Below, piece by piece: positions 2,824 through 30,092 of a stretch of DNA of 30,612 nt. Numbering within the stretch: position 1 is the stretch's first letter; every line of letters starts with the position of its first letter. Source of the stretch: a virus (Duplodnaviria; Heunggongvirae; Uroviricota; Caudoviricetes). Below the pieces are notes generated by a model that did no database searches, was not told the origin of the DNA, and was given only the letters and a program-made list of their open reading frames with translations. The translations under genes were made by a program, and so were the position numbers. Location of the stretch: the IMG/VR virus record IMGVR_UViG_2859827302_000008; one strand, written 5' to 3'.

Positions 2824-2915
2824 GTAAGCGTACAGCCTGAACCGTCTGGTCAGAATCTGACGAATTAGACAAAGTGGTGTCCACCAAATAAGTAGTGGGA
2901 ACCAAAGTGTCAGAT

Positions 2916-3296
2916 ATGCAGAAAAATGTGAATCCCGGCAGGCGAAAAGGCTGCCCTAATTATCCTCCCGAATTTAAACAGCAGCTCGTTGCTGCCTCCT
3001 GTGAACCCGGGATATCCATCTCAAAACTTGCTCTTGAAAATGGCATTAACGCCAATCTGTTGTTCAAATGGCGACAACAATGGCGCGAGGGAAAGCTGCT
3101 ATTACCTTCTTCAGAGAGCCCCCAGCTACTTCCTGTGACTCTCGATGCAGCTGCCGAACAGCCAGAATCGCTCGCAGAGGATCCGGAAACCCTCAGTATC
3201 AGCTGTGAGGTAACGTTCCGGCACGGGACGCTCCGCTTCAATGGCAATGTCAGCGAAAAGCTCCTGACTCTGCTGATACAGGAACTGAAGCGATGA
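2916..3296 (+). CDS. tnpA: IS66-family accessory protein TnpA
   Basis: First ORF inside the IS; start taken as ATG 2916 (ORF track uses GTG 2895). Stop overlaps the tnpB start (ATGA). Confidence 0.65.
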   Translation: MQKNVNPGRRKGCPNYPPEFKQQLVAASCEPGISISKLALENGINANLLFKWRQQWREGKLLLPSSESPQLLPVTLDAAAEQPESLAEDPETLSISCEVTFRHGTLRFNGNVSEKLLTLLIQELKR

Positions 3297-3640
3297 TCCC
3301 GTTACCTTCCGGGACCAAAATTTGGCTGGTTGCCGGTATCACCGATATGAGAAATGGCTTCAACGGCCTGGCGGCAAAGGTGCAGACGACGCTGAAAGAC
3401 GATCCGATGTCAGGTCACGTTTTTATCTTCCGTGGGCGTTATGGCAGTCAGGTAAAGCTCCTCTGGTCTACCGGCGATGGACTGTGTCTGCTGACCAAAC
3501 GGCTGGAGCGCGGCCGCTTCGCCTGGCCGTCAGCCCGGGATGGCAAAGTGTTCCTCACACCGGCACAGCTGGCGATGCTCCTTGAAGGTATCGACTGGCG
3601 GCAGCCTAAAAGACTGCTTACGTCCCTGACTATGTTGTAA
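3293..3640 (+). CDS. tnpB: IS66-family Orf2 (TnpB)
   Basis: 115-aa ORF in the conserved middle position of IS66 elements, translationally coupled to tnpA. Confidence 0.7.
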   Translation: MIPLPSGTKIWLVAGITDMRNGFNGLAAKVQTTLKDDPMSGHVFIFRGRYGSQVKLLWSTGDGLCLLTKRLERGRFAWPSARDGKVFLTPAQLAMLLEGIDWRQPKRLLTSLTML

Positions 3641-3688
3641 GCCTCTTTATCCTGGTCGACGCTGAATGAGCCTGGTAATATACCCGGT

Positions 3689-5227
3689 ATGAGCAGCTCA
3701 CTTCCTGACGATATCAATGCACTGAAACGTCTCCTTGCCGAACAGGAGGCGCTGAACCGTGCCCTGCTGGAAAAGCTGAACGAGCGTGAACGCGAAATAG
3801 ACCATCTGCAGGCACAGCTGGATAAGCTGCGCCGGATGAACTTCGGCAGCCGCTCCGAAAAAGTCTCCCGTCGTATCGCACAGATGGAAGCTGACCTGAA
3901 GGCACTTCAGAAAGAAAGTGATACCCTTACCGGTCGGGTTGACGACCCGGCCGTGCAGCGCCCGCTGCGTCAAACCCGCACCCGCAAACCGTTCCCCGAA
4001 TCACTCCCCCGCGATGAAAAACGGCTGCTGCCGGCAGCGTCATGCTGCCCGGAATGTGGAGGCTCACTGAGCTATCCGGGTGAGGATGCCGCCGAACAGC
4101 TGGAGTTGATGCGCAGCGTCTTCCGGGTTATCCGGACTGTACGTGAAAAGCATGCCTGTACTCAGTGCGATGCCATCGTGCAGGCCCCCGCGCCTTCACG
4201 GCCCATCGAGCGGGGTATCGCAGGACCGGGGCTGCTGGCCCGCGTGCTGATCTCAAAGTATGCAGAGCACACCCCGCTGTACCGCCAGTCTGAAATGTAC
4301 GGCCGCCAGGGCGTGGAGCTGAGTCGTTCACTGCTGTCGGGCTGGGTGGATGCATGCTGCCGGCTACTGTCACCGCTGGAAGAAGCGCTTCAGGATTATG
4401 TGCTGACTGACGGTAAGCTCCATGCTGATGACACGCCTGTCCCGGTGCTGTTGCCAGGCAATAAGAAAACGAAGACCGGGCGGTTATGGACCTACGTTCG
4501 TGACGACCGTAACGCCGGGTCAACGCTGGCGCCGGCGGTGTGGTTCGCTTACAGCCCGGACAGAAAAGGCATCCATCCGCAGACCCATCTTGCGGGGTTC
4601 AGTGGTGTACTGCAGGCGGATGCATACGCCGGGTTCAACGAGCTGTACCGGGATGGCCGGATAACGGAAGCCGCCTGTTGGGCTCACGCCCGCCGTAAAA
4701 TCCACGATGTGCACGTTCGCACCCCGTCAGCCCTGACGGAGGAAGCGCTGAAACGGATCGGCGAACTGTACGCCATCGAGGCAGAGATAAGGGGAATGAC
4801 GGCGGAGCAGCGCCTTGCCGAACGTCAGTTGAAAACGAAACCGCTGCTGAAATCCCTGGAAAGCTGGCTGCGTGAAAAGATGAAAACCCTGTCGCGACAC
4901 TCAGAACTGGCGAAAGCGTTCGCATACGCCCTGAACCAGTGGCCGGCGCTGACGTACTATGCAGATGATGGCTGGGCTGAGGCGGACAATAACATCGCTG
5001 AAAATGCGTTGCGGATGGTCAGTCTGGGCCGCAAAAACTACCTGTTCTTCGGTTCGGATCATGGAGGAGAGCGGGGAGCGCTGCTGTACAGCCTGATCGG
5101 GACGTGCAAACTGAACGGAGTGGAGCCAGAAAGCTACCTCCGCTATGTCCTTGACGTCATAGCCGACTGGCCGATAAACCGGGTCGGCGAACTGCTCCCC
5201 TGGCGCGTAGCACTGCCGACTGAATAA
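3689..5227 (+). CDS. tnpC: IS66-family transposase TnpC
   Basis: 512-aa ORF with N-terminal coiled-coil, CxxC…CxxC zinc-finger-like motif (CCPECGG…CTQCD) and DDE-type core, ending just inside the right inverted repeat. Confidence 0.85.
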
Positions 5228-5264
5228 CACATCCCCGTCAATACGGTTCTTGCTGCACGCTTAC

Positions 5265-5272
5265 CATTGACG
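5265..5272. repeat. Target-site duplication CATTGACG, right copy
   Basis: Exact copy of 2816..2823 immediately after the IS right end. Confidence 0.8.
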
Positions 5273-6162
5273 GGCGTGGTCTGGCTGGCGAGATCAGCAA
5301 GGAAACGGGTAAATCCCTGCGTGATAACGCTGAATACGTTAATCCCTGGGCGTCTCTGCATCGTGTTCAGCAATTCCGCTTCTTTGGTATTCCAGGGCGT
5401 CAGGCTTACCGTGAACTGCGGTTGTTGGCTGGTCAGGCGGCAAGGCAGCAGGGTGACAAAAAAGCAGGTGCGCCGGTACTGGATAACCCGCGCCTTGATG
5501 CCATCCTGGCTGCTGCTGATGCTGGCTGTTTTGCCACCTACATTATGAGGCAGGGCGGCGTGCTGGTTCCTCGCAAATATCACTTGATCAGAACCGCTTA
5601 TGAAATCAATGAAGAGCCGACCGCCTATGGCGATCACGGTATTCGTATTTATGGCATCTGGTCACCCATTGCAGAAGGCAAGATCTGCACTCATGCAGTG
5701 AAGTGGAAAATGGTTCGTAAAGCCGTTGACGTTCAGGAGGCGGCAGCCGACCAGGGCGCTTGCGCCCCTTGGACTCGTGGCAATAACTGTCCCCTTGCTG
5801 AAAATTTGAACCAACAGGAGAAAGATAAATCAGCTGATGGGAACCCCAGAACGGACATTACCAGCATGGATGACAAGGAGTTGCACGATTACCTGCACAG
5901 TATGAGCAAAAAAGAGCGCCGGGAACTGGCAGCAAGGTTACGCCTGGTGAAACCGAAACGGCGTAAAGACTACAAACAGCGAATTACAGACCATCAGCGA
6001 CTGCAGCTCGTGTATGAGCTGAAGTCCAGAGGATTTGATGGCAGCGAGAAAGAGGTCGATTTACTCCTTCGCGGAGGCAGTATTCCGTCAGGAGCAGGCC
6101 TGCGTATCTTCTATCGGAACCAGCGTTTGCAGGAAGATGATCAGTGGCGGAACCTATATTAA
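5273..6162 (+). pseudogene. A: P2-type replication initiation gene A, 3' part
   Basis: Joining 2823 to 5273 restores a continuous frame (…KNIDG|[25 protein letters not shown]…); downstream ORF to 6162 continues gpA-like sequence. Confidence 0.8.
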
Positions 6163-6273: not shown

Positions 6274-6314
6274 GTTATGCATGCAGTATTGCGTGTGGTG
6301 TCATAGGAGGAAAG

Positions 6315-6503
6315 ATGCAGGACTATTTTTTGGAGTCTTTGAAGCTCCAGCGCATTGATTTTTTTCTTAAGCTTGTAGCGGCTAGTGAGTGTAGTGATGA
6401 AGAGAAGGGGCTGGCTCTGCAGTGGGTTTCTGAATTGACTGATGAACTCATGGCAAAAATCAGAACCCACGAATACAACCGCTCAATGGATGTCATCAGC
6501 TGA
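6315..6503 (+). CDS. Hypothetical small protein (62 aa), first gene of the putative SOS-regulated operon
   Basis: ORF preceded by a strong AGGAGG ribosome-binding site (6302..6307). No motif recognised. Confidence 0.5.
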   Translation: MQDYFLESLKLQRIDFFLKLVAASECSDEEKGLALQWVSELTDELMAKIRTHEYNRSMDVIS

Positions 6504-6513
6504 GGTGACTTTT

Positions 6514-6747
6514 ATGCGCATTGAAATAATGATCGATAAAGAGCAGAAGATTAGCCAGTCTACCCTGGACGCTCTTGAATCCGAGCTTTACCGCAATCTG
6601 CGCCCTCTGTATCCCAAAACGGTAATTCGTATCCGCAAAGGTAGCTCTAACGGTGTGGAACTTACCGGATTGCAACTGGACGAAGAAAGAAAACAAGTGA
6701 TGAAAATTATGCAGAAGGTGTGGGAAGACGACAGCTGGCTGCATTAA
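6514..6747 (+). CDS. dinI: DinI-family protein (damage-inducible protein I-like)
   Basis: Translation MRIEIMIDKEQKISQSTLDALESELYRNL…KIMQKVWEDDSWLH resembles E. coli DinI in length (77 aa) and conserved positions. GAGGTGA ribosome-binding site 6 nt upstream of ATG 6514; the ORF track's upstream start at 6442 is in the same frame. Confidence 0.8.
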   Translation: MRIEIMIDKEQKISQSTLDALESELYRNLRPLYPKTVIRIRKGSSNGVELTGLQLDEERKQVMKIMQKVWEDDSWLH

Positions 6748-6882
6748 GAAACGTTGCTGGCGTCTGAACTAGCTTCTGGCGTCAGCAAGGTTGAACAACG
6801 AGCCCTTGCGAGGCGTTAGCTCTGTAGTGCATGTCTATGCTGCATGAGATCGCATGATCGTTTGAGGATCGTTTTTGCTAAG

Positions 6883-6908
6883 GCCCGCCAGAACTGGCGG
6901 GCTTTTGC
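6883..6908 (+). terminator. Rho-independent terminator after the dinI-like operon
   Basis: GC-rich hairpin GCCCGCC-agaact-GGCGGGC followed by TTTTG. Confidence 0.55.
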
Positions 6909-6969
6909 GTAGATCATGCAGGTGCATGAAAACCACTACATAAAGCGGGCAGGCGTGGCGGGGATACGA

Positions 6970-6997
6970 TTGCGCGCTAGGTATAAGTGTGTAAAAT
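6970..6997 (+). promoter_or_regulatory. Possible sigma70 promoter of the ATPase/HNH operon (-35 TTGCGC, -10 TAAAAT, 16-bp spacer)
   Basis: Hexamers read by eye about 45 bp upstream of ATG 7040; not supported by any other evidence. Confidence 0.25.
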
Positions 6998-7039
6998 AAT
7001 TCCAAAATAAATCATCACTAATGAAGTGAGAGGGTAATA

Positions 7040-8689
7040 ATGTTAGTCAAGAAAAATAAAAATTATAGTTTATATTTTTTAATTACAAATAATCAACAGA
7101 TATCTGATTCTGGTAATTATATAAAAATAGTCCCATCAAGAAGCGATTGGAATGATTTTGGATATTTGAGTAGAGTCGAAATATCTATTTTTAATAAAAA
7201 AGAGTGTAAGGATATAATTTCACTGAATGGTTATATTGGTTTTTTGAATTCAGAGGAGGAACGAAATGGAAAAGCAGAACTGATAAGGCGAGTGAAAAAA
7301 AAGGAAGAATCTAATTTAAAGGATGAGGGGTTTAATGATTATTTTGTCATGCTTCAGGATATGAATAATTATCGAAGACTAGTAAGATTTTTTGGGGTGA
7401 ATGAATCCAAATATATATTAAATTTCATTAATGATGTTGTTTCTAAGAAAAGTGACGCTAGTGCAGAGAATTTGAGGAAAAAAGCAATCTCTTCTGATAT
7501 CTTTAATAAATCTTTCATTAGAGAGTCTGAGTCGTATTTTACTTTCAAAAATGCAGGAACAGTTCTTTCCGGTATTCAATATGAGGAGTTGGGTAATTTA
7601 TCACAGCACATCAAGATTAGCTATTCGAATAAAGTTAATGAAGAAGATGTATCTTATGTTTTTAATTTTGATCACGAGCATGATTTACCAAAAAGAATTT
7701 CCATAATTATAGGCGAGAATGGTGTAGGAAAAAGCCAAACGCTTAGAGAAATCGCATTGGCTGCGATTAAAGGAAAGGATAATTTGGTGGCTGTAGTTGA
7801 TTCTAACGGTGTGAGCATTGAAGAACGAATTCAAATTAGTAGGCTCATTGCTTTTTCTCCAACAAATGAAAGTAAGTGTTCATTTCCAACCGATAAAAGA
7901 ATAAAATCATTGATATGGTACAAAAGATTGACTTTAAATCGTGAATCAAAATCCAAATTAAACTTGAATGATTTAATAGTGCAACTAGCGAGGAGTAACG
8001 ACGCTATCGGCTATAATCAAAGGTGGAATATATTTGTTGATGCACTGAGTGTTCTAAATAGTAACAACGATTTAGTAATCAAATGTGGCGGTGAAAATTC
8101 ACCATTTGTTAAATTAAATGAGCTTAATTCTCGAGGCGAAGAATCTAGACTATCATTATATTCTGAAATTATTCTCTCTGGCGAGCCTTTGAGGCTTATT
8201 GAAAATAAATGTTACCCTTTGAGTAGTGGGGAAATATCGTTTATTAAGTTTTGTGTACAAGTCTGTTTGTATATTGAGAATGGGACTCTTCTATTAATAG
8301 ATGAGCCAGAAACACATCTCCATCCTTCATTTATTAATAAATTTATGGCATTGCTTGATAATTTATTAGAAAAGACAGGCTCTTCAGCTATCATAGCAAC
8401 GCATTCGGTTTATCTTGTTCGGGAGGTTTTTAAGGAGCAAGTGACAATACTCAGAAGACGAGATGATGGGGTAATTGTTAGCGAAAAACCGAGATTGAGT
8501 ACTTTTGGGGCGAATATAGGAAATATCTCATATTTTGTTTTCGGTGAGAGTGAACCAACTCAAATTTTAAATAAAGTAAAAAACAATATAATTGCAAAGA
8601 ATATGTCTTGGGATGATGTTGAATCTAAATATAGCGAGGACTTATCACTTAATGTATTAACTGCGTTGAGAAATGAAATGGGCAATTGA
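7040..8689 (+). CDS. ABC-type (AAA_15/AAA_21-like) ATPase with unassigned ~220-aa N-terminal domain; candidate defence ATPase (PtuA-like)
   Basis: 549-aa ORF with GAGAGGG ribosome-binding site. Walker A GENGVGKS (aa ~225-232), signature-like LSSGE (~395), Walker B LLLIDEPE (~417-424), H-loop ATHS (~453). Gene is strongly AT-rich. Confidence 0.85.
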   Translation: MLVKKNKNYSLYFLITNNQQISDSGNYIKIVPSRSDWNDFGYLSRVEISIFNKKECKDIISLNGYIGFLNSEEERNGKAELIRRVKKKEESNLKDEGFNDYFVMLQDMNNYRRLVRFFGVNESKYILNFINDVVSKKSDASAENLRKKAISSDIFNKSFIRESESYFTFKNAGTVLSGIQYEELGNLSQHIKISYSNKVNEEDVSYVFNFDHEHDLPKRISIIIGENGVGKSQTLREIALAAIKGKDNLVAVVDSNGVSIEERIQISRLIAFSPTNESKCSFPTDKRIKSLIWYKRLTLNRESKSKLNLNDLIVQLARSNDAIGYNQRWNIFVDALSVLNSNNDLVIKCGGENSPFVKLNELNSRGEESRLSLYSEIILSGEPLRLIENKCYPLSSGEISFIKFCVQVCLYIENGTLLLIDEPETHLHPSFINKFMALLDNLLEKTGSSAIIATHSVYLVREVFKEQVTILRRRDDGVIVSEKPRLSTFGANIGNISYFVFGESEPTQILNKVKNNIIAKNMSWDDVESKYSEDLSLNVLTALRNEMGN

Positions 8690-9554
8690 AATGAATAAAT
8701 TAAAAAGACCTGTTTTTAAAGATTATTCTGCATTTAAAAAACTATCTGCAAATAAGAGATTAAAACATCATTCTGTTCTGAATGGACAGGATACATTTAT
8801 ACTTAATGCATATAGATCGTACATAAAGAATAAAGGGTATCTTAATGTCAATTCTTGTGGCGTATTGAGTAACAATATTGCTGAAGCTTTGAGATATTAT
8901 TATAACAATCCCGCAAAGTGTTTATCTATAATTGATGATATAAGAGCAGCTAATTCTAACTCTCTATGTCCAATGTGTGGTTCAATGCATAGCGGGACTT
9001 TGGATCATGTTTTACCCAAGGAAAACTATCCAGAATTTTCTTTATTCACTAAGAATTTGGTTCCTGCTTGCAAATGTAATACTTTCAAAAGTACTACTAT
9101 AGCTAATTCTGCAGGCCATCGGATGCTGCATCCATATTTTGATAATATATTAAAACAAAGATTAATATGTGCTAATTTTTCTAAATTAGGGCGAACACCT
9201 ACAATTGATGTAAAAATCATAATTGACCCAATGTCACCAGAATATAACAATGTTAAGTATCATCTTGATAATGTTGTTATCAAGAATAATATTAAGGGGT
9301 ATTTGTCTGAACAATGGGAGTCGTTTTACTTATATCCTGAGCTTGTTATTAGAGGACTGAATAAGAGTCTTTCTACTTATAGCGATGTATATGAGTTGTT
9401 GACTCGCGAGTTGTTGCTGTTGGATGAAAAACATAAAGGTAAAAATAATTGGAATTCGGTTTTTGTAGCTGGGTTAATTCGACCTGATGTGATTAGGTGG
9501 ATACTCTGTGAATTACATTTAGGTAACAGAAGTCCAGACGGTCGTCTCATATGA
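8673..9554 (+). CDS. HNH-family nuclease (His-Me finger with Cys4 zinc site); candidate defence effector (PtuB-like)
   Basis: 293-aa ORF overlapping the ATPase stop by 17 nt (alternative start ATG 8691 directly after the stop). Motif CPMCGS…GTLDHVLPKEN…NLVPACKCN…H matches the CxxC…DH…N…CxCN HNH layout. Confidence 0.8.
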   Translation: MKWAIEMNKLKRPVFKDYSAFKKLSANKRLKHHSVLNGQDTFILNAYRSYIKNKGYLNVNSCGVLSNNIAEALRYYYNNPAKCLSIIDDIRAANSNSLCPMCGSMHSGTLDHVLPKENYPEFSLFTKNLVPACKCNTFKSTTIANSAGHRMLHPYFDNILKQRLICANFSKLGRTPTIDVKIIIDPMSPEYNNVKYHLDNVVIKNNIKGYLSEQWESFYLYPELVIRGLNKSLSTYSDVYELLTRELLLLDEKHKGKNNWNSVFVAGLIRPDVIRWILCELHLGNRSPDGRLI

Positions 9555-9564
9555 TTTTTTGCAT

Positions 9565-9590
9565 CTTCAGCGTGTATCTGCACGCTGAAG
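9565..9590. other. Perfect 10-bp inverted repeat (stem-loop) between convergent HNH gene and portal gene
   Basis: CTTCAGCGTG-tatctg-CACGCTGAAG. A T-run precedes it on the plus strand, but no U-tract follows it on either strand, so it is not a canonical terminator. Confidence 0.4.
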
Positions 9591-9661
9591 AAATTCATAA
9601 AAACTGCTGCCTATTAATAAAATTTTTTAGCTGAGTTAAAGAACCTCATTTAGTGATTACG

Positions 9662-10696
9662 TTAAGTAGCTAGTTTATAACTATCAAATTTAACAATGTT
9701 CTCACTTACCAATTTATTTATTTCCATCATTCTTTTTTGTAACGGTATTAACTCGTTACGTACAAACACCAGGCTCGCCTTCTCCACATCCCCAAACCCC
9801 CCGACATTATTAGGCATAATCCCCATCATTTGCGGTGGCACACGATGCGCCGCCATCATGTCATCCCGGCTCACGTTCTTGATGTTCAGAAACTCATCCT
9901 TCGCCGCGACTTCTGACAACGGGATGATCTGAAGCCCGTCCTTTTTGCCGTTAGGCGAGTACATAAACAGATTGCGGAAGTTACCTGGTCCTTTGGCGCT
10001 TTTCATCGCATTGCGGAGGTTGTTCACATCCTCCTGGTTTTGCGCGGCATCGGTCATGTACATGATGAAGCCTGCATGACTGCCGTTAATGTAATACTAT
10101 CGGCGGAACAGCGTGGCGGACTCGTTGAGCAGGGCTGACGGAATGGCAGAAAGGTAACCTGGCAGGCCGTAGATCTCTTGGTTGATGTCCGGTTCCATCA
10201 GATGAAAGATGCTTCCTTTCGTGAACTGATACGGCTGCGTGGTCATGCCGTATTGCACAAACCAGTAGGTATCCAGGTCTAATCCGCGTCGGGTGTATTT
10301 TGCCAGAGCAGGCTCAAGAGCGATGACCTCTCCGAACCGGTTTGTGCGTTTCTCCAGGTAAGCGTTACCAAATACCAGATAATCCTGCACAAAACGTGAA
10401 AAAGCCTGCTGGCTGAGCAGCGGGTGAGGGATGTAGGTACTGATCAGAATGTTGCATTTCACCGCAATTGGTGAACTGTGATGCACGGCGGCGCGGAAGG
10501 TGCGCGCCAGTCCGTCAAAACTCACTGGCGGCTCATACCAGCGATCTGTCTGTACGCATTCCACATAGTCCAGTAGTTCACGGCGGTCCAGAACCGGAAC
10601 GGGATCGCCGAAGCTGAATGCTTCGGCTGAAGTCTGGTTTTTATGCTGGGTCTGTTTCGTCGCCGCAGCGCGGTTCTTCTTACTCTTTCCCATCAA
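9662..10696 (-). pseudogene. Q: P2-type portal protein gene Q with one in-frame amber codon (TAG at 10097..10099)
   Basis: Two minus-strand ORFs (10097..10696 and 9662..10063) share one frame and are separated only by the TAG plus 11 sense codons. Combined length (~344 codons) fits a P2-type portal. Confidence 0.85.
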
Positions 10697-12459
10697 AAAA
10701 TCTCCACAATATTGCTGGTATTGGCGGACTCGCCCTGCAGCGGTTCGTTAAACAGTGCGTGCATTGTTGCCCAGGCCAGATCGGCATGGCTGGCTTCTTC
10801 GCTGCGGCTGGCTTCATAGGTCGGGCGGTTGCCGCTGGCGGTGGTGGCGCGACGGATTGCCATGAATGACTGCGCAATGTCGGTGTGCCCGGCGTCAAAC
10901 TCAAGACGGCGGTGGCTGATAATGTCGTAGGCCTTGAGTACCAGGGCGTTTTTAACGTTGGGGTTGTAGACAAACTCCCGGACGGCAGGAAAAAACGCTT
11001 TCACGTTCTCGTAAACCCCGTGACCAACGCCGGTTGAGTCGATGCCGATATAGGTCACGTTGTACTGTTCAGTCAGTTTTTTGATGGCGTAAGCCTGGGC
11101 GCGAAAGTCCATTCCGCGCCACTGGTGACGCTCAAGAATGCGGAACTTACCGCCTGGCACGGCTGGCGGTGCCACCACCACGCATCCGGCGCTGTCGCCG
11201 TTCTGCGTACCTTTTGCCGGGTCATAACCGATCCACACTTCGCGCCAGCCAAACGGGCGCAGGGCCAGTGCATGAAAGTCGGTCCAGACTTCCCAGCTGT
11301 CCACCATGCACGCCTGCAATTCGCTGAGCGGGAACACGGACGCGAGATCGTCCACGAACTCGCACATCAGCAGGTTCTGGTATTCGTCAGGGCTGTACTC
11401 CATGCGCAACTGGTCAAGGTCGAACAGGTTACAGGCGCCGCGCACCGCATCTTCCACGGTGACTATCTGGCGGTATTGCCCGTCTGCGCACAGCAGGCCG
11501 GGGGCCAGATTGCTGTGGGACAGGTCGATGTCCACCTTGTCAGCTTTGTTGCGCCCACGGTTGAACAGCGCACCGGACCAGAACGGATAAGCACTGTGGG
11601 TCAGACTGGATGGTGTGGAAAAATAGGTCTGCCGCCATTTCTTGTGAATAGCCATACCAGAAGCCACTTTGCGTAGCTCCTGAAATTTCGGTATCCAGAA
11701 ATATTCATCCAGATACAGGTTACCGTGATAACTCTGGGCAGTGCGGGCATTGGTGCCGAGGAAATACAGTGTGGCCCCGTTGGGAAGCACCATCGGATCG
11801 CCTTTCAGCTCCACCTCCACTTCTTTGGCAAAGTCGATGATGTACTGTTTGAAGACGTGGGCCTGTGCCTTACTGGCAGAAAGGAAAATCTGGTTACGTC
11901 CGGTAAGCAGGGCGTCAATCAGGGCTTCACGGGCAAAATAGAAGGTCGCGCCGATCTGGCGTGACTTCAGCAGGTTGCGGATGCGGTTGGTTTTTCCGGC
12001 TTCCCACCAGTGGCGCTGGTAGTTGAACATGGAGGAATGGAAATTTTTTTCCAGCTTCTCAATCTGGTCATCGGTGAAAACATTCTTTTCAGGCTGACGG
12101 CGTGGGCCTTTGTTGCGGTTGGCGACGTTAGGGTTTAAGTCGGCTTCGTTGCCGCCATTGTTAAACTTGCCGATCCGCGCGTGGCGCTCAGACTGGCGCG
12201 CCAGCAGGTCAATATCTTTGAAATCTTTCCCTTCTTTGTGCTCCTTCATGATGAGCTGGCAGTAGCGTGCGGCGGTGGTGAGCTGCATCTGATCCAGAGG
12301 CCCATAGTCACCCCACTTGTCGCGTTTTTTTCAGCTGTAAACGGTTGCAACTTTCTCGCCCAGCATTTCAGCAATGCGGGCTACGCGGTATCCCTGAAAG
12401 TACAGCAGCATGGCCTGCCGACGGGGATCGAGATCTGCGGGTGTCAGTGTGGTGTTCAT
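10693..12459 (-). pseudogene. P: P2-type terminase large (ATPase) subunit gene P with in-frame opal codon (TGA at 12331..12333)
   Basis: ATG at 12459 opens MNTTLTPADLDPRRQAMLLYFQGYRVARIAEMLGEKVATVYS, then TGA, then the same frame continues into the 531-aa ORF 10693..12288. Confidence 0.85.
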
Positions 12460-15259: not shown

Positions 15260-15706
15260 ATGAAGTTTGTTGCGCCAGAACAGGCACCGGAACAGGCGGA
15301 AATCATTAGAAATACGCCGTTCTGGCCTGATGTGGACCTGTCGGAGTTTCGCAGTGTCATGCGCACTGACGGCACGGTGACGCAGCCGCGTTTAAAGTAG
15401 GTTGCACTGTCGGCAATTTCGGAGGTTAACGCAGAGCTGTATGAGTTTCGCAGACGCCAGCAGATGCTGGGGTATGCGTCGGAACAGCTGGACGGGAAAA
15501 GTGAGCGCATTCAGCACTATTTCAACGCGGTTTACTGCTGGGCTCGCGCCATGCTCAACGAACGTTTCCAGGACTATGACGCCACGGCATCCGGTGCGAA
15601 GCGGGGCGAAGAACTGGCGGAAGCAAGCGGTGATTTGTGGCGTGACGCCCGCTGGGCCATCAGCCGGGTGCAGGACGCGCCGCACTGCACAGTGGAGCTT
15701 ATCTGA
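15260..15706 (+). pseudogene. L: Head completion protein gene L with in-frame amber codon (TAG at 15398..15400)
   Basis: ATG 15260 with AGGAG ribosome-binding site. Translation …NTPFWPDVDLSEFRSVMRTDGTVTQPRLK-stop-VALSAISEVNAELYEF… continues in the same frame to 15706 and resembles P2 gpL on both sides of the stop. Confidence 0.8.
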
Positions 15707-17952: not shown

Positions 17953-18346
17953 ATTGCAGAAGGTGGACGACTGGCTGAGTGCATTATTGGCGAATCTGGA
18001 GCCAGCCGCAAGAAGCCGCATGATGCGCCAGCTGGCGCAGGAACTGCGCCGGACACAGCAGCAGAACATCAGGATGCAGCGCAATCCAGATGGCAGCAGT
18101 TATGAGCCGCGCAGGGTAACAGCACGCAGCAAAAAGGGGCGCATCAAACGTCAGATGTTTACAAAGCTGCGCACCACAAAATACCTGAAAACTGCAGCCA
18201 GCGCCGATTCTGCCAGCGTACAGTTTGAAGGTAGGGTGCAGCGCATTGCCCGTATTCACCATTACGGCTTGAGTGATCGCGTCAGTCGAAAAGGTATTTA
18301 TACCATCTATGCGAAAAGGCAGTTATTAGGTTTTAATGTCCGGTAA
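17945..18346 (+). pseudogene. S: Tail completion protein gene S, 3' end replaced by the IS1 terminus
   Basis: GTG-initiated ORF. The last codons and the stop (TAA 18344..18346) lie at the junction with and inside the IS1 inverted repeat that starts at 18342. Confidence 0.7.
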
Positions 18347-18396: not shown

Positions 18397-18672
18397 GTGG
18401 CTTCCATTTCCATCAGATGTCCTTCCTGCTCCGCTATTGAAGGCGTGGTGCGTAACGGCAAAAGCACTGCCGGACATCAGCGCTATCTCTGCTCTCATTG
18501 CCGTAAAACATGGCAATTACAGTTCACTTACACCGCCTCTCAGCCCGGTACGCACCAGAAAATCATTGATATGGCCATGAATGGCGTCGGATGTCGCGCC
18601 AGTGCACGCATTATGGGCGTTGGCCTCAACACGGTTTTACGTCACTTAAAAAACTCAGGCCGCAGTCGGTAA
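18397..18672 (+). CDS. insA: IS1 InsA
   Basis: 91-aa [26 protein letters not shown]… with zinc-finger and HTH regions, characteristic of IS1 InsA. Confidence 0.9.
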
Positions 18673-19094
18673 CCTCGCGCATACAACCGGGCAGTGATGT
18701 GATTGTCTGCGCTGAAATGGACGAACAGTGGGGCTACGTCGGTGCTAAATCACGTCAGCGCTGGCTGTTTTACGCGTATGACAGGATACGGAGGACGGTT
18801 GTGGCGCACGTCTTCGGTGAACGCACTCTGGCCACACTGGAGCGTCTTCTGAGCCTGCTGTCGGCCTTTGAGGTCGTGGTATGGATGACGGATGGCTGGC
18901 CGCTGTATGAATCACGCCTGAAGGGAAAGCTGCACGTTATCAGCAAGCGTTACACTCAGCGCATTGAGCGACATAATCTGAATCTGAGACAACATCTGGC
19001 AAGGCTGGGACGGAAGTCACTGTCGTTCTCAAAATCGGTGGAGCTGCATGACAAGGTCATCGGGCATTATCTGAACATAAAACACTATCAGTAA
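18591..19094 (+). CDS. insB: IS1 InsB reading frame (expressed as InsAB' transposase by -1 frameshift)
   Basis: 167-aa ORF overlapping insA in the -1 frame, ending 15 bp before the right inverted repeat. Confidence 0.85.
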
Positions 19095-19109
19095 GTTGGC
19101 AGCATTACC

Positions 19110-19624
19110 ATGCAGCCCTCACAATATAGTTAAAAGCGACATTTCGTGGGCGTGTTTCATTCGCACCTGCAGGTTTAGTCGTTGCCGCAACAACACCACC
19201 CTCTGTAATAGCCGGGTTGGGAATTGGGTAATTATCGAAGTCAATGGCCGGAGACAGGGGCGTGATTTGTTTTAAAATCGTGGTGCCTGTAAAACTTTCC
19301 AGAGTCTGGTCGTTAGTTCGTGAAGTCCAGATTCCCCAATAGTGGTTATGACTGACAATCGCACCGTCCTGAAGCGTTAATAATCCCCTTCCGTTATCCA
19401 CTCCACGTCCGTCATCCCAGCCACGAATAAACTCACCGCGTAAATCAGGCAATTTATTTGTCGGGTAAGCCTTTGCCAGTTCCGGGTATTCTTCAGCAGA
19501 AAAAGCCGCACCATTGCATTTCAGCCAGCCTGTCGGCGGAGTGGCTGAAGGCCACGGAACAGGCACACCAACAGGTAATGCAGAGCCTTCTCCCAAACCA
19601 ACGTTTAAGAAAATGCAGAGATAA
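19110..19624 (-). pseudogene. Orphan tail-fibre variable C-terminal segment (Sv'-type, inverted orientation), lacking its constant 5' partner
   Basis: Minus-strand translation …PVPWPSATPPTGWLKCNGAAFSAEEYPELAKAYP…ETRPRNVAFNYIVRAAW is typical of invertible-segment tail-fibre tips. The 5' end begins within the gix-like site and the 3' end abuts IS1, which supplies the stop codon. Confidence 0.65.
19599..19624. promoter_or_regulatory. gix/pix-like DNA-invertase crossover site
   Basis: TTCTCCCAAACCAACGTTTAAGAAAA versus recalled gix consensus TTATCCAAAACCTCGGTTTACAGGAA. It lies inside the tail-fibre reading frame, next to the invertase gene. Confidence 0.5.
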
Positions 19625-19668
19625 TGGCTAACTGGCATCATCTCCGGTTTTTATTCAGGGGATTGATC

Positions 19669-20235
19669 ATGCTTATTGGCTATGTACGCGTGTCAACAAA
19701 TGACCAGAACACCGATTTGCAACGTAATGCACTGAACTGCGCGGGATGTGAGCGGATTTTTGAGGATAAAATCAGTGGCACTAAGCCCGACAGACCGGGG
19801 CTTAAAAAACTGCTCAGGACACTATCGGCAGGAGACACGCTGGTTGTCTGGAAGCTGGACAGACTGGGACGCAGTATGCGGCATCTTGTTACGCTGATAG
19901 AAGAGTTGCGCCAGCGTGGTGTGAATTTCCGAAGCCTGACTGACAGTATTGATACCAGTACCCCAATGGGCCGTTTCTTTTTTCACGTCATGGGGGCTCT
20001 GGCTGAAATGGAACGTGAACTGATAGTTGAACGTACCAGAGCAGGGCTGGCTGCAGCTCGTGCCAAAGGCAGAGTAGGTGGACTCCGTCCTAAGTTGACC
20101 ACCGAACAGTGGGCACAGATTGGACGTTTACTCGAGGCCGGAGAATCAAGACAGCGTATTGCACTGATTTTTGATGTGGGCGTTTCTACCATTTATAGAA
20201 AATTTCCGGCGAATGAGAGCAATGAATCGCCCTGA
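19669..20235 (+). CDS. pin: Serine-recombinase DNA invertase (Pin/Gin/Hin/Cin family)
   Basis: Translation MLIGYVRVSTNDQNTDLQRNAL…VVWKLDRLGRSM…GALAEMERELI… carries the catalytic Ser in YVRVST and a C-terminal HTH. Start taken as ATG 19669. Confidence 0.9.
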   Translation: MLIGYVRVSTNDQNTDLQRNALNCAGCERIFEDKISGTKPDRPGLKKLLRTLSAGDTLVVWKLDRLGRSMRHLVTLIEELRQRGVNFRSLTDSIDTSTPMGRFFFHVMGALAEMERELIVERTRAGLAAARAKGRVGGLRPKLTTEQWAQIGRLLEAGESRQRIALIFDVGVSTIYRKFPANESNESP

Positions 20236-22566: not shown

Positions 22567-25500
22567 CAATAACCTGCGTCTGCAGGTGATTCTTAATGCG
22601 GTTGACAAACTCACCCGCCCATTTCGATCCGCGCAGGCCAGTTCAAGAGAACTGGCTGCTGCTGTCAAAAAATCCCGCGATGCAATAAAGCAGCTTGATC
22701 AGGCCGGGAGCAGTCTGGACAGCTTCCGAAAGCTGCAGGCAGAAAATCAGAAATTAGGCGACAGGCTGAACTATGCCCGCCAGCGTGCAAATTTGCTCAG
22801 TCAGGAACTGGGAGCGATGGGGCCGCCTTCGCAACGTCAGGTTGTTGCTCTGGGCCGTCAACGGCTGGCTGTTCAGCGCCTGGAAGAACGCCAGAAAAAG
22901 CTGCAGCAGCAGACGGCGCTTGTGCGTGCAGAACTTTATCGTGCTGGTATTTCAGCTAATGATGGCGCCAGTGCGACGGCCCGCATTACCCGTGAAACGA
23001 TGCGTTATAACAGGCAGCTTTCTGAGCAGGAAGCGAGGTTACGACGTGTCGGGGAGCAACAGCGAAAAATGCACGCCGCCCGGGGGGCTTACGCCAGGCG
23101 TCTTGAGGTAAGGGATCGTATTGCAGGTGCCGGAGCCACCACCACGGCTGCAGGGCTGGCAATGGGCGCACCAGTGATGGCGGCAGTAAAAAGCTATACC
23201 AGCATGGAAGATGCCATGAAAGGTGTGGCAAAGCAGGTCAATGGTCTGCGTGACGATAATGGCAACCGCACTGCGCGTTTTTACGAAATGCAGGGTGCCA
23301 TCAAGGCTGCCAGCGAACAGTTGCCGATGGAAAACGGTGCTGTGGACTTCGCCGCACTGGTTGAAGGTGGTGCGCGCATGAACGTCGCAAACCCTGACGA
23401 CAGCTGGGAAGACCAGAAACGTGACCTGCTGGCCTTCGCCAGCACGGCGGCAAAGGCGGCAACAGCCTTTGAACTGCCAGCGGATGAACTGTCAGAAAGT
23501 CTGGGGAAAATCGCCCAGCTCTACAAAATCCCTACCCGCAATATTGAGCAGCTCGGTGATGCGCTGAACTATCTGGATGATAACGCCATGTCGAAAGGGG
23601 CGGACATCATTGATGTCATGCAACGCCTGGGCGGTGTGGCTGACCGTCTGGATTATCGTAAAGCGGCGGCGCTGGGTTCCACCTTCCTGACACTCGGCGC
23701 TGCGCCTGAGGTTGCAGCCAGTGCAGCAAACGCGATGGTGCGTGAATTGTCCATTGCCACCATGCAAAGCAAGAGTTTCTTTGAAGGGATGAATCTGCTG
23801 AAACTCAATCCAGAAGTGATTGAAAAGCAGATGACGAAGGATGCGATGGGAACTATCCAGCGGGTGCTGGAGAAGGTGAATGCGCTGCCACAGGATAAGC
23901 GCCTGTCTGCCATGACCATGTTGTTTGGTAAAGAGTTTGGCGATGACGCAGCGAAACTGGCAAACAACCTGCCGGAACTTCAGCGCCAGTTAAAACTGAC
24001 TGCGGGCAATGATGCGCTCGGTTCCATGCAGAAAGAATCCGACATCAACAAGGATTCACTTTCTGCTCAGTGGTTGCTGGTCAAAACCGGAGCACAGAAC
24101 ACCTTCAGCAGCCTGGGGGAAACGCTGCGCCAGCCGCTGATGGATATTCTGTACACGGTGAAAAGCGTCACGGGGGCGTTGCGTCGCTGGGTGGAAGCTA
24201 ACCCGGAACTGACGGGCACTCTGATGAAAGTAGCCGCTGTGGTAGCTGCCGTTACCGTGGGCCTCGGCACCTTAGCGGTGGCGCTGGCTGCAGTGCTGGG
24301 GCCGCTGGCAGTCATCCGTCTGGGATTCTCTGTGCTGGGTATCAAAACGTTACCTTCCGTTACGGCAGCAGTAACCCGAACCAGCAACGCGTTGTCCTGG
24401 CTGGCTGGCGCACCACTGGCACTGCTGCGACGCGGGCTTGCTTCATCGGGCAACGCTGCAGGTTTACTTACTGCGCCGTTGTCGTCTTTGCGCCGCACGG
24501 CATCACTGACGGGAAATGTCCTGAAAACTGTAGCAGGTGCGCCGGTTGCACTTTTGCGGTCTGGATTATCCGGTTTACGTGCGGTTGCTGTGATGTTTAT
24601 GAATCCACTGGCGGTACTACGCGGCGGACTGGCTGCCACAGGCACGGTGCTGCGTATGCTCGCATCCGGTCCACTGGCGATGCTGCGCGTTGCCCTGTAT
24701 GCCGTCTCTGGTCTGTTAGGTGCTCTGCTCAGTCTGATAGGTCTTGTGGTTACTGCACTGGCGGGTGTGGCGCTGGTTGTCTGGAAATACTGGCAGCCCA
24801 TCACCACATTTCTCGGTGGCGTGGTGGAAGGATTCAAAGCGGCGGCAGGTCCTGTCAGTGCCGCGTTCGAACCGCTTAAGCCTGTGTTCCAGTGGATTGG
24901 CGACAAAGTACAGGCGCTGTGGGGCTGGTTTACTGATCTGCTGACGCCCGTTAAGTCGACCTCTGCCGAACTGCAGAGTGCAGCGGCAATGGGGCGACGA
25001 TTCGGGGAGGCTCTGGCGGAAGGGCTGAATATGGTCATGCATCCGCTGGACTCCCTGAAATCCGGCGTTTCCTGGTTGCTGGAGAAACTTGGCATTGTCA
25101 GTAAAGAGGCCGCAAAGGCGAAACTGCCGGAAAGCGTGACGCGTCAGCAACCTGCGACGGTGAATGCAGACGGTAAAGTGATGATGCCATCGGGTGGTTT
25201 TCCGTCATGGGGATATGGCTTTGCGGGGATGTATGACAGCGGCGGGTATATCCCGCGCGGGCAGTTTGGCATCGTCGGTGAAAACGGGCCGGAAATTGTT
25301 AACGGCCCGGCAAATGTGACCAGCCGGAGAAATACAGCTGCACTGGCTGCCGTTGTTGCCGGAATGATGGGTGTTGCTGCTACGCCAGCAGAGCTTCCAC
25401 CGTTGCACCCTTTGGCACTTCCCGCGAAAGGCGGTGAAGCGATGGTGAGTCGTGCAGCCACTGTGCCGCCCGTTCAACGGATTGAGGCACCGATGCAGAT

Positions 25501-27759: not shown

Positions 27760-29445
27760 TTATCCTAATCCTGGCCATACCATGACGATGATTGTCCCTG
27801 CCAGCGTCAGCAGGACGTTGGCGATTGCGTAGGTGCCCGCATAGCCCAGCGCAGGGATGTTACTGCGAGCTGTATCACTGATGATCTCCATTGCCGGCGC
27901 GCAGGTGCGTGCGCCCATCATTGCGCCGAACAACAGTGCGCGGTTCATTCGCAATACATAAGCACCGAACAAGAAACAGATAACCACGGGCACAAGACTG
28001 ACAATTAATCCGGCAATCAACATCTGACCGCCAATCGCGGCCAGGCCGTTATTAATACCGCTACCGGCGCTCAGACCAACGCCTGCCATAAACACCATCA
28101 AGCCGAACTCTTTCACCATGCTTAATGCACCTTGCGGAATGTAACCGAAGGTCGGGTGGTTAGCACGCATAAAGCCCAGCATAATTCCGGCGAATAACAA
28201 CCCGGCAGCGTTCCCCATGCCGAAACTGAATGTGCTGAACTGGAAGGTGATCATCCCGATCATCAGCCCAATAACAAAGAAGGCGCAAAATGCCAGCAGG
28301 TCAGTGACCTGGCTGTGAATCGAGATAAAGCCGATGCGATCGGCAATGGTTTTTACGCGACGGGCATCACCGCTGACTTGTAAAACGTCACCTTTGTTAA
28401 GCACGACGTTGTCATCTATCGGCATCTCAATCTGGCTACGAATGACGCGGTTAAGGAAGCAACCGTGATCGGTCAACTTCAGTTGTGCGAGACGTTTACC
28501 TACAGCGTTATGGTTTTTAACGACCACTTCTTCAGTGACGATACGCATGTCGAGAAGGTCACGATCGAAAACTTCTTTACCGTTACGGAAGCTGGGATCG
28601 AGTCGGGCATGGGCGTCGGGATAGCCTACCAACGCTATTTCATCGCCCATTTGTAGCACGGCATCACCGTCTGGATTTGCCAGAATCCCGTTACGTCGAA
28701 TACGTTCAATGTAGCAGCCGGTTTGTCGATAAATACCCAGTTCACGCAGATTTTTGCCGTCGGTCCAGGCCACCAGCTCCGGGCCGACGCGATAGGCGCG
28801 GATCACCGGTAAATAAACCTTACGGTTGGCATCAGTGTCCAGGCCACGTTCGCGGGCGATTTGCTGGGCGCTGGTCTGTAAGTCCTGATGCTGCAATTTC
28901 GGCAAGTAACGCGCACCAACAATCAAACTCACCAGACCGATTAAATAGGTTAAGGCATACCCGAGGCTCAGATTATCCAGTGCCAGTGAGAGCTGCCTGC
29001 TTTCCATGCCGGAATGACGCAGTGTATCGCCAGCACCGACCAGAACCGGTGTCGACGTCATAGAGCCTGCTAACATACCGGCCGTCAGGCCAATATCCCA
29101 GCCAAACAGCTTACCTAACCCTAAGGCGATCACCAGCGCACTGCCAACCATCACCAGTGCTAACATTAGGTAATTTTTCCCATCGCGAAAAAAAATGGAA
29201 AAAAAGTTCGGTCCGGCTTCGACCCCGACGCAGAAAATAAACAGCATAAAGCCAAGATTAAGCGCATCGGTGTTAATGCTGAAATGTTGTTGGCCTAATA
29301 ACAGCGATACGACTAAAACGCCAATGGAATTACCCAGTTGGATCGAACCAAGTCGTAACTTTCCGAGACATAGCCCAAGCGCGAGGACCACAAATAATAA
29401 CAGAATGTAATTCCCATTTAACAATTCGGCGACGTTTATATTCAC
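27760..29445 (-). CDS. ybjL: Putative transport protein YbjL
   Basis: 561-aa ORF: two multi-helix membrane domains flanking cytoplasmic TrkA-C-like regions; translation recognised as E. coli YbjL. Confidence 0.9.
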
Positions 29446-29714
29446 GGAGGCTAACTTCTTGTTTACTAGTAAGCTGTTGAAAGAAATGGTAATTTACGAT
29501 AATGTTTTTTACCAGAATTCAGGGCGCAGATTCATTCAGCGCACCTAAACGATAGTAAAGTAACAATGTATTTTACTAGTGTAATCACATTAGGTATCAA
29601 CGGCTATATGAATTGCGTTGGCCTATATTAGCATGGAATGCGAAGCGGCTTTATCTTACTGAACGCCACACTGGCGAAAAATGTGTTCGATAGACGCAGT
29701 GTCAGGAGGAACGA

Positions 29715-30092
29715 GTGAAACATAAACAACGTTGGGCGGGGGCAATCTGCTGTTTTGTCCTCTTCATTGTGGTGTGCCTTTTTCTGGCGACGTACATGAA
29801 AGGCGCTTTTCGGGCTGCCGGGCATCCTGAAATCGGCTTGCTGTTTTTCATTCTTCCTGGAGCAGTTGCCAGTTTCTTTTCACAGCGTAGAGAAGTCCTG
29901 AAACCTCTATTTGGCGCAATGCTGGCGGCACCCTGTTCAATGCTCATTATGCGGCTGTTTTTTTCACCGACGCGCTCATTCTGGCAAGAGCTGGCATGGT
30001 TACTAAGCGCGGTGTTCTGGTGTGCGCTGGGGGCACTGTGTTTCTTATTTATCAGTAGTTTGTTTAAACCACAGCACAGAAAAAATCAGTAA
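29715..30092 (+). CDS. ybjM: Inner membrane protein YbjM
   Basis: 125-aa hydrophobic ORF, GTG start with AGGAGG ribosome-binding site, in the ybjL-ybjM-grxA arrangement known from E. coli K-12. Confidence 0.8.
   Translation: MKHKQRWAGAICCFVLFIVVCLFLATYMKGAFRAAGHPEIGLLFFILPGAVASFFSQRREVLKPLFGAMLAAPCSMLIMRLFFSPTRSFWQELAWLLSAVFWCALGALCFLFISSLFKPQHRKNQ

Follow-up and report, generated by a model that had tools for sequence, protein, structure and literature searches.

The stretch of DNA described here, which we refer to throughout as the window, comprises the 30,612 nucleotides of IMG/VR virus record IMGVR_UViG_2859827302_000008 and holds a P2-like prophage of the Shigella/E. coli group. It carries a cassette of two adjacent plus-strand genes at positions 7040 to 9554, and it is the function of this cassette that concerns us. 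The first gene (7040..8689, 549 amino acids) is predicted to encode an ATPase that resembles Ea59 of phage lambda and, more distantly, PtuA of the Septu system, and that falls in the PADLOC family PDC-M01A. The second (8691..9554, 287 amino acids) is predicted to encode an HNH nuclease that resembles lambda Ea31, falls in PDC-M01B and has a PtuB-like fold. An earlier note on this DNA, made from the letters alone, had proposed the pair as a candidate anti-phage defence system, a reading that we also favour.

Both reading frames are intact. For gene 2 the longest open reading frame runs from 8673 to 9554 (plus strand, 293 amino acids); we place the start at 8691, because 30 aligned homologues start with MNK(L/I) or, in a few cases, a close variant of it, and because RefSeq WP_005007304.1 ('HNH endonuclease') begins at the same ATG. 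The earlier note was right that both genes lie on the plus strand but had them overlapping. They abut instead, a single nucleotide separating the ATPase stop codon (TGA, 8687-8689) from the start of gene 2, whereas in homologous loci the two frames overlap by 4 or 8 nucleotides. Given this spacing, the two genes are likely to be translationally coupled. A Shine–Dalgarno-like GAGGG, read from the sequence, lies 5 nucleotides before the ATPase ATG (7030..7034, plus strand). Between the stop codons of the HNH gene and the portal gene Q is a perfect 11-bp inverted repeat with a 6-nucleotide loop (9564..9591, assigned to neither strand). It has a T-run before it and an A-rich stretch after it, and is therefore not a canonical intrinsic terminator on either strand.

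The cassette stands out by its base composition. The earlier note had put it, by eye, at roughly 30% G+C against 50% for the neighbouring genes, and computation gives a clear break of this kind: G+C is 0.32 over 7040-9554 and 0.538 in the remainder of the window, while the G+C of third codon positions is 0.26 and 0.25 in the two genes. A sliding profile stays at 0.28-0.35 from about 7000 to 9750 and at 0.52-0.60 on either side. DNA common to about 1200 other E. coli P2-like prophages ends at about 6995 and restarts at about 9702-9783, in the 3′ end of Q. The swapped module (6996..9700, plus strand) is therefore about 2.7 kb long and reaches the last codons of Q; the list of open reading frames holds none in the module beyond the cassette pair. 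Of 5426 complete E. coli genomes, about 1236 have this type of portal gene, yet only 3 contain the module in full. The exact cassette proteins are found on 694 and 264 contigs from Shigella boydii, S. dysenteriae, S. flexneri, E. coli and Salmonella. A diverged copy in a P2-like prophage of Scandinavium is AT-rich too (G+C of 0.33 versus 0.55). The module is horizontally acquired, compositionally foreign cargo, as had been suspected from the letters.

The cos-proximal interval between gpA and gpQ is a hotspot of diversity in P2-like phages, with 1,650 arrangements described by Rousset et al., and in phage P2 it holds old and tin (PMC9122126). The earlier assignment of the cassette to this slot holds, except that gene A is not its immediate neighbour. 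Between the two lie a 62-amino-acid open reading frame, a DinI-like gene (6517-6747), a hairpin with a T-run (6877-6908) and, next to the left boundary of the module, a cos-like 19-mer, GGCGTGGCGGGGATACGAT (6952..6970, plus strand). This 19-mer has 3 mismatches to the cos sequence of phage 186; one match occurs in the window and none in 100 shuffles. If the 19-mer is the cos site, the cassette would sit between cos and Q and not between A and cos. An intact copy of the same prophage, integrated adjoining rcdA/ybjJ in E. coli UPEC-245U, differs by 4 bases and 1 residue across the cassette. Its gene order is replication endonuclease A, the small open reading frame, the DinI-like gene, the ATPase, the HNH gene and then the portal gene on the opposite strand.

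A place between a cos-like site and the portal and terminase genes would suit an HNH cofactor of phage DNA packaging, as in HK97-like phages. The distribution of the cassette effectively refutes this explanation, to which we attach next to no weight. Rather than being conserved with the terminase module, the cassette is present in 3 of the approximately 1236 E. coli genomes with this portal type, its composition is foreign, and its family is found mostly outside phages. Moreover, P2-type terminases function without it, and the HNH proteins of packaging machines are small and unaccompanied by an ABC ATPase.

The product of gene 1 is, judging from its motifs and profile matches, an ABC-type ATPase. 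All of the motifs quoted in the earlier note are present on the plus strand, and the key residues in them are the same in all of 30 aligned homologues. These are Walker A, GENGVGKS (7712..7735, residues 225-232, with G225, N227, G228, G230, K231 and S232 invariant); the ABC signature, LSSGE (8219..8233, residues 394-398, L394-E398 invariant); Walker B with the D-loop, LLLIDEPE (8288..8311, residues 417-424, D421-E424 invariant, including the acidic pair D421 and E422); and the H-loop, ATHS (8396..8407, residues 453-456, T454-S456 invariant, including H455). Pfam gives matches to AAA_21 (E 3e-16) and AAA_15 (E 1.3e-8). The NCBIfam model TIGR04435, 'restriction system-associated AAA family ATPase', scores 73.6 bits, under its cut-off, and in RefSeq the UPEC-245U copy, one residue apart from that of the window, is named 'AAA family ATPase' (WP_112048222.1).

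In front of the ATPase motifs is an N-terminal domain of about 190 residues (7040..7615, plus strand, residues 1-192). It contains 19 invariant alignment columns, including WNDFG (7148-7162), FTML..YR and F.KSF.R.SESYF.FKN, and has no match in Pfam when searched alone. A profile of this domain retrieved only 267 matches from 1.84 billion representative proteins, and the full-length ones are nearly all of 525-586 amino acids with the domain at the N-terminus. We therefore regard it as specific to this ATPase family. It is present in lambda Ea59 and absent from a validated classical PtuA, and we propose it as a candidate sensor or assembly domain.

The HNH motifs of gene 2 are likewise those of the earlier note, namely CPMCGS at residues 93-98, LDH at 104-106 and NLVPACKCN at 122-130, counted from the 8691 start. 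The predicted catalytic core (8967..9131, plus strand) consists of C93-x2-C96, D105-H106, N122, C127-x-C129-N130 and H147, all invariant in the 30 homologues. Histidine and asparagine are 16 residues apart, the same spacing as in lambda Ea31 and in PtuB of Septu EcB88 (H75 and N91; PMC13096335). The core is followed by a helical C-terminal domain (9138..9551, plus strand, residues 150-287) with a conserved KGKNNWNSVF at 9435-9464. AlphaFold predicts this domain confidently (pLDDT >90; the means for the models of the two proteins are 80 and 82), and it is probably the surface that contacts the ATPase. No HNH model in Pfam matches gene 2, whether searched whole or as its N-terminal, core and C-terminal parts.

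The two genes travel together. Among 80 species-representative loci, which span Alpha-, Beta- and Gammaproteobacteria, Verrucomicrobia and others, the ATPase gene lies directly upstream of the HNH gene on the same strand in 76, and the 4 exceptions are truncated or partial matches. Divergence of the ATPase is correlated with that of the HNH protein (Spearman 0.62). Compared with the Scandinavium copy, the ratios of non-synonymous to synonymous substitution rates (dN/dS) are 0.09 and 0.11, and both proteins are under purifying selection.

These data bear on the idea of a selfish element, either an addiction module of the toxin–antitoxin kind or a homing-type HNH element, with no role in phage defence. 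HNH genes are often selfish, the Pfam description of AAA_21 reads 'putative AbiEii toxin, type IV TA system', and unaltered copies of the cassette persist on 264-694 Shigella, E. coli and Salmonella contigs, decayed prophages included. Nevertheless, we find the idea improbable. The HNH gene essentially never occurs without its large ATPase partner (76/80 loci), unlike free-standing homing endonucleases, the cassette interrupts no host gene or intron, and the AAA_21 label reflects a generic ABC-ATPase match. Strong purifying selection over a long divergence, and neighbourhoods made up of defence loci, also argue against it.

The neighbourhoods are informative in their own right. In 18 more distant loci, 106 flanking open reading frames (three per side) include 8 matches to HsdM, 8 to HsdS and 5-6 to HsdR, which is compatible with a place inside or next to a type I restriction operon for up to about 8 of these 18 pairs. 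These counts are per reading frame and not per locus and have no matched background, so they are indicative and do not amount to a formal enrichment test. The neighbours in 33 other loci include Lamassu, type III methylases, McrBC, ABC-3C components, UvrD-type helicases and integrases. An island in Stenotrophomonas has AbiJ, a Lit-type peptidase and Shedu near the pair, which is also found on rhizobial and Agrobacterium plasmids. A P2-like prophage is the setting in just 1 of the 80 species-representative loci. Large same-strand reading frames flank the ATPase–HNH pair in relatives from Vibrio, Shewanella, Photobacterium and Verrucomicrobia; the 18 loci counted above are of this kind, and their HsdM, HsdS and HsdR-type neighbours agree with the name that NCBIfam gives to TIGR04435.

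The earlier note had left room for the pair belonging to a different or undescribed family. It does lie outside the curated Septu models; it is not, however, undescribed, since by profile the family is already catalogued as PDC-M01 and includes lambda ea59-ea31. Profile searches had been suggested as a check, and with the PADLOC models they place the pair in this defence candidate. The best PADLOC match of the ATPase is PDC-M01A (PDLC04242, E 3.2e-55, 185 bits, residues 27-539), and that of the HNH protein is PDC-M01B (PDLC04270, E 1.2e-33, residues 8-270), as are all of its best 25 matches. The assignment comes from matches to the PADLOC HMM library plus the adjacency of the genes (same strand, 1-nucleotide spacer). 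Payne et al. (bioRxiv 10.1101/2024.01.29.577857) derived the PDC systems, 145 untested candidates, from genes found inside BREX, DISARM and type I restriction loci. PDC-M01 comprises two gene arrangements, with 964 and 245 cassette occurrences, which top the multi-gene candidates in the part of the authors' table considered here. The family is widespread.

The link to lambda is a strong one. A tblastn search of phage genomes with the HNH protein mostly retrieved lambda-like phages, at ea31 (E 2e-8). In lambda (NC_001416, 24509-26973) ea59 and ea31 encode NP_040608.1, an 'AAA family ATPase' of 525 amino acids, and NP_040607.1, an 'HNH endonuclease' of 296 amino acids. Using hhalign, our ATPase family profile aligns with Ea59 at a probability of 99.5% (E 6e-23, 473 columns, residues 33 to 549), N-terminal domain included, and BLASTP aligns the two ATPases with E 2e-19 and 24% identity over about 550 columns; WND(F/Y) near the N-terminus is common to both. 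The HNH family profile aligns with Ea31 at a probability of 98.1% (E 7e-14, 195 columns), with 37% identity across the core. The lambda proteins match the same PDC-M01 models at E 3.9e-201 and 5.8e-113. On these alignments lambda ea59-ea31 are homologues of the cassette pair, full-length in the case of the ATPase, and members of PDC-M01. The homology names the family without explaining what it does.

Structure prediction, also suggested earlier as a check, points towards Septu. In a Foldseek search with the ATPase model, the best solved matches are PtuA chains, from retrons Ec83, Ec78 and Eco7 and from E. coli Septu (E 3e-8 to 2e-6), at 12-14% identity. For the modelled folds of both cassette subunits, the nearest solved structures are PtuA and PtuB of stand-alone and type I-A retron-associated Septu (8EE4, 8EE7, 8EEA, 9E90, 9KJX and 9N6B), a likeness confined to the fold. 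Sequence searches of the Protein Data Bank, with single sequences and with family profiles, found no PtuB, and PtuA appeared marginally among generic ABC proteins.

Taken together, the evidence makes it likely that we are dealing with a Septu-like anti-phage system of two proteins, which belongs to the Ea59/Ea31 (PDC-M01) family and is cargo of a P2-like prophage at the cos-proximal hotspot. The reasons are the invariant motifs, the linkage, the selection, the likeness of fold, the homology to lambda, and the defence and restriction contexts of the relatives; a role in defence is thus suggested by context and homology.

Several results weigh against this interpretation. The template modelling (TM) score of the ATPase against the PtuA structures is about 0.3, and the HNH core, in the AlphaFold2 model, is of low confidence (pLDDT 47-70). 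The ATPase scores 41.1 bits with the curated PtuA model (NCBIfam NF041760), for which the cut-off is 500, and the HNH protein 13.1 bits with TIGR02646, the PtuB type, for which it is 52.15. The hhalign comparison with a validated P. rettgeri PtuA reaches a probability of 5%, over just 45 columns of the Walker B and H-loop region, the PtuA used being a truncated sequence (PMC12935923). No strong sigma-70 promoter was found in 6910-7040, which leaves expression from the prophage unsupported. Our literature search found no published phage-challenge result for any member of the Ea59/Ea31 (PDC-M01) family, the PDC systems are explicitly presented as untested (bioRxiv 10.1101/2024.01.29.577857), and other PDC candidates were inactive when assayed.

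The main competitor is that the pair serves the phage itself, as an accessory nuclease in lytic growth that would cut the nucleic acid of the host or of competitors, for host takeover, the exclusion of co-infecting phages or counter-defence. Lambda ea59 and ea31 are named as early lytic genes; this counts against the defence reading, since it suits service to the phage at least as well as the protection of a lysogen. Benchimol et al. (1982) reportedly described a lambda-specified endonuclease, which may consist of Ea31 and Ea59. The cassette is oriented like the early operon (A and the DinI-like gene), and the search upstream of it gave no strong promoter. Furthermore, the lambda homologues are non-essential genes of the b region (PMC10695390; PMC9674246). 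On the other hand, most members of the family are outside phages, with 1 of 80 loci in a P2-like prophage, and many relatives are near or inside type I restriction operons, in defence islands or on rhizobial plasmids. In the window, the T-run hairpin at 6877-6908 parts the cassette from the upstream operon, and the cassette is intact in a prophage that is unable to replicate or package. We therefore consider a phage-serving role unlikely, if less so than a selfish one.

The state of the prophage deserves a brief description. An IS66-family element (2824-5265, with an accessory reading frame at 2895-3296 and the transposase at 3689-5227) splits the replication gene A into 1299-2840 and 5422-6162. 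Relative to the intact genes of UPEC-245U, the portal gene Q has a nonsense codon, K200* (TAG, 10097-10099), and the terminase gene P has another, W43* (TGA, 12331-12333). With gene A split and Q interrupted, the prophage is therefore a remnant. The cassette is intact although the prophage around it has decayed. Amino-acid changes relative to UPEC-245U number 1 in 836 codons for the cassette, 8 in 934 for P plus Q and 0 in 631 for O plus N, and with so few changes preferential retention of the cassette cannot be claimed.

Other features of the window are as follows. A fragment of an IS3-like, rve-type transposase (approximately 1-654) abuts a truncated Dam methylase gene, and the left arm of the prophage (integrase, repressor and early genes) is missing from the window. 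At 15480, 18 bp are deleted relative to the UPEC-245U prophage, and colinearity with the latter stops at 18341. From there to about 20378 the baseplate and tail-fibre region is replaced by an IS1 transposase (18591-19094), a tail-collar fragment (19105-19641, minus strand) and a resolvase-type invertase (19624-20235). At 27760-30092 host genes, ybjM and one for an Asp-Al_Ex family transporter, delimit the prophage on the right. The UPEC-245U prophage has a minus-strand DUF5677 gene (23511-24530 of that locus) between a virion morphogenesis gene and baseplate gene V, a position that may be a second cargo slot; the matching region is missing from the prophage of the window.

How might a Septu-like module of this kind work? 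By analogy with Septu, we propose that the ATPase oligomerises and binds the 287-amino-acid HNH nuclease, for which the C-terminal helical domain would be the likely docking surface. In an uninfected cell, the binding or hydrolysis of ATP by the ATPase would hold the nuclease inactive; for stand-alone PtuAB, DNA nicking falls as ATP rises (PMC12819146). During infection a trigger would be sensed, probably via the family-specific N-terminal domain of the ATPase, and the HNH site (D105-H106, N122, H147 and a putative Cys4 zinc site) would then cut nucleic acid. The target may be DNA or, as with Septu and retron-Eco7, one of the host tRNAs. In Septu EcB88 the Walker A and B residues and the HNH residues are both needed, and infection triggers cleavage of tRNA-Tyr (PMC13096335). 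The outcome would be a halt to phage replication at the cost of growth arrest. Complex formation, gating by ATP, the trigger, the substrate and the anti-phage activity are each suggested here by the Septu analogy.

A related question is whether the Ea59/Ea31 pair is a separate defence family and not just a divergent Septu, with an N-terminal domain that senses another trigger and an HNH site that cuts another substrate. We put this forward tentatively. If correct, lambda ea59/ea31 would be a prophage-borne immune or exclusion system, kin to the pairs that many Proteobacteria carry within or adjoining type I restriction operons.

An active cassette would provide the first functional handle on PDC-M01, as well as a role for lambda ea59/ea31, two genes that lack an assigned function in the best-studied of all phages. 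For such work the Shigella/E. coli copy has the advantage that large phage panels exist for its native host, and the N-terminal domain could be used to study how the triggers of ABC-ATPase/nuclease systems have diversified. Should the cassette prove inactive or phage-serving, it would be routine hotspot cargo. The additions made here are a corrected gene start, the boundaries of the module, the link to lambda ea59-ea31, the family-specific N-terminal domain and strict linkage statistics.

Among known systems, the P2 old gene, Gabija (GajA) and PARIS (AriA/AriB) share the logic of an ABC ATPase with a nuclease, and old sits in the same hotspot. At the level of the ATPase there are weak HMM matches to AriA and OLD-type proteins. 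The nuclease of these systems is a TOPRIM domain, fused or separate, whereas that of the cassette is an HNH protein. HMM scans gave no TOPRIM or DUF4435 match in either cassette protein, and we reject membership of the OLD/Gabija/PARIS class. A type I-A retron was also considered and rejected: the module has no reverse transcriptase reading frame, and there is no Rfam match in 6300-10000 at E values up to 1.

Within PDC-M01, the 'embedded' context that led to such candidates is seen in several distant relatives too, where type I restriction genes are among the nearest neighbours. The copy described here differs: it is prophage cargo, with no restriction or BREX system around it. The lambda pair has the same order, ATPase then HNH, with a 4-nucleotide overlap, and the same kind of location, a dispensable accessory region of a temperate phage. 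It differs in lying in the b region next to att of a different phage family, whereas the cassette is in the P2 cos–Q slot. The second zinc knuckle of Ea31 is a canonical CxxC and that of the cassette HNH protein is CxC (C127-K-C129), and identity to the cassette proteins is only 24% and 37%.

We found no paper that links ea59 with Septu in our literature search. The one PADLOC PtuA model to match the ATPase well is PDLC00282, at E 9.6e-32; it is essentially of the Ea59 type, because lambda Ea59 itself matches it at E 5e-184. PADLOC calls of Septu and PDC-M01 overlap in Bacillus (PMC11811056). The resemblance to Septu (PtuA/PtuB) pointed out in the earlier note holds for fold and architecture: in Septu, too, one operon encodes an ABC ATPase and, after it, an HNH nuclease. 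In a validated classical PtuA, Walker A is at about residues 33-38 and the 190-residue N-terminal domain is lacking, whereas in the cassette ATPase Walker A is at 225-232. The cassette HNH protein is 50-80 amino acids longer than solved PtuB chains, with its catalytic histidine at 106 versus 53-75. By its predicted architecture and modelled fold the cassette is Septu-like, but by curated definitions it is not Septu.

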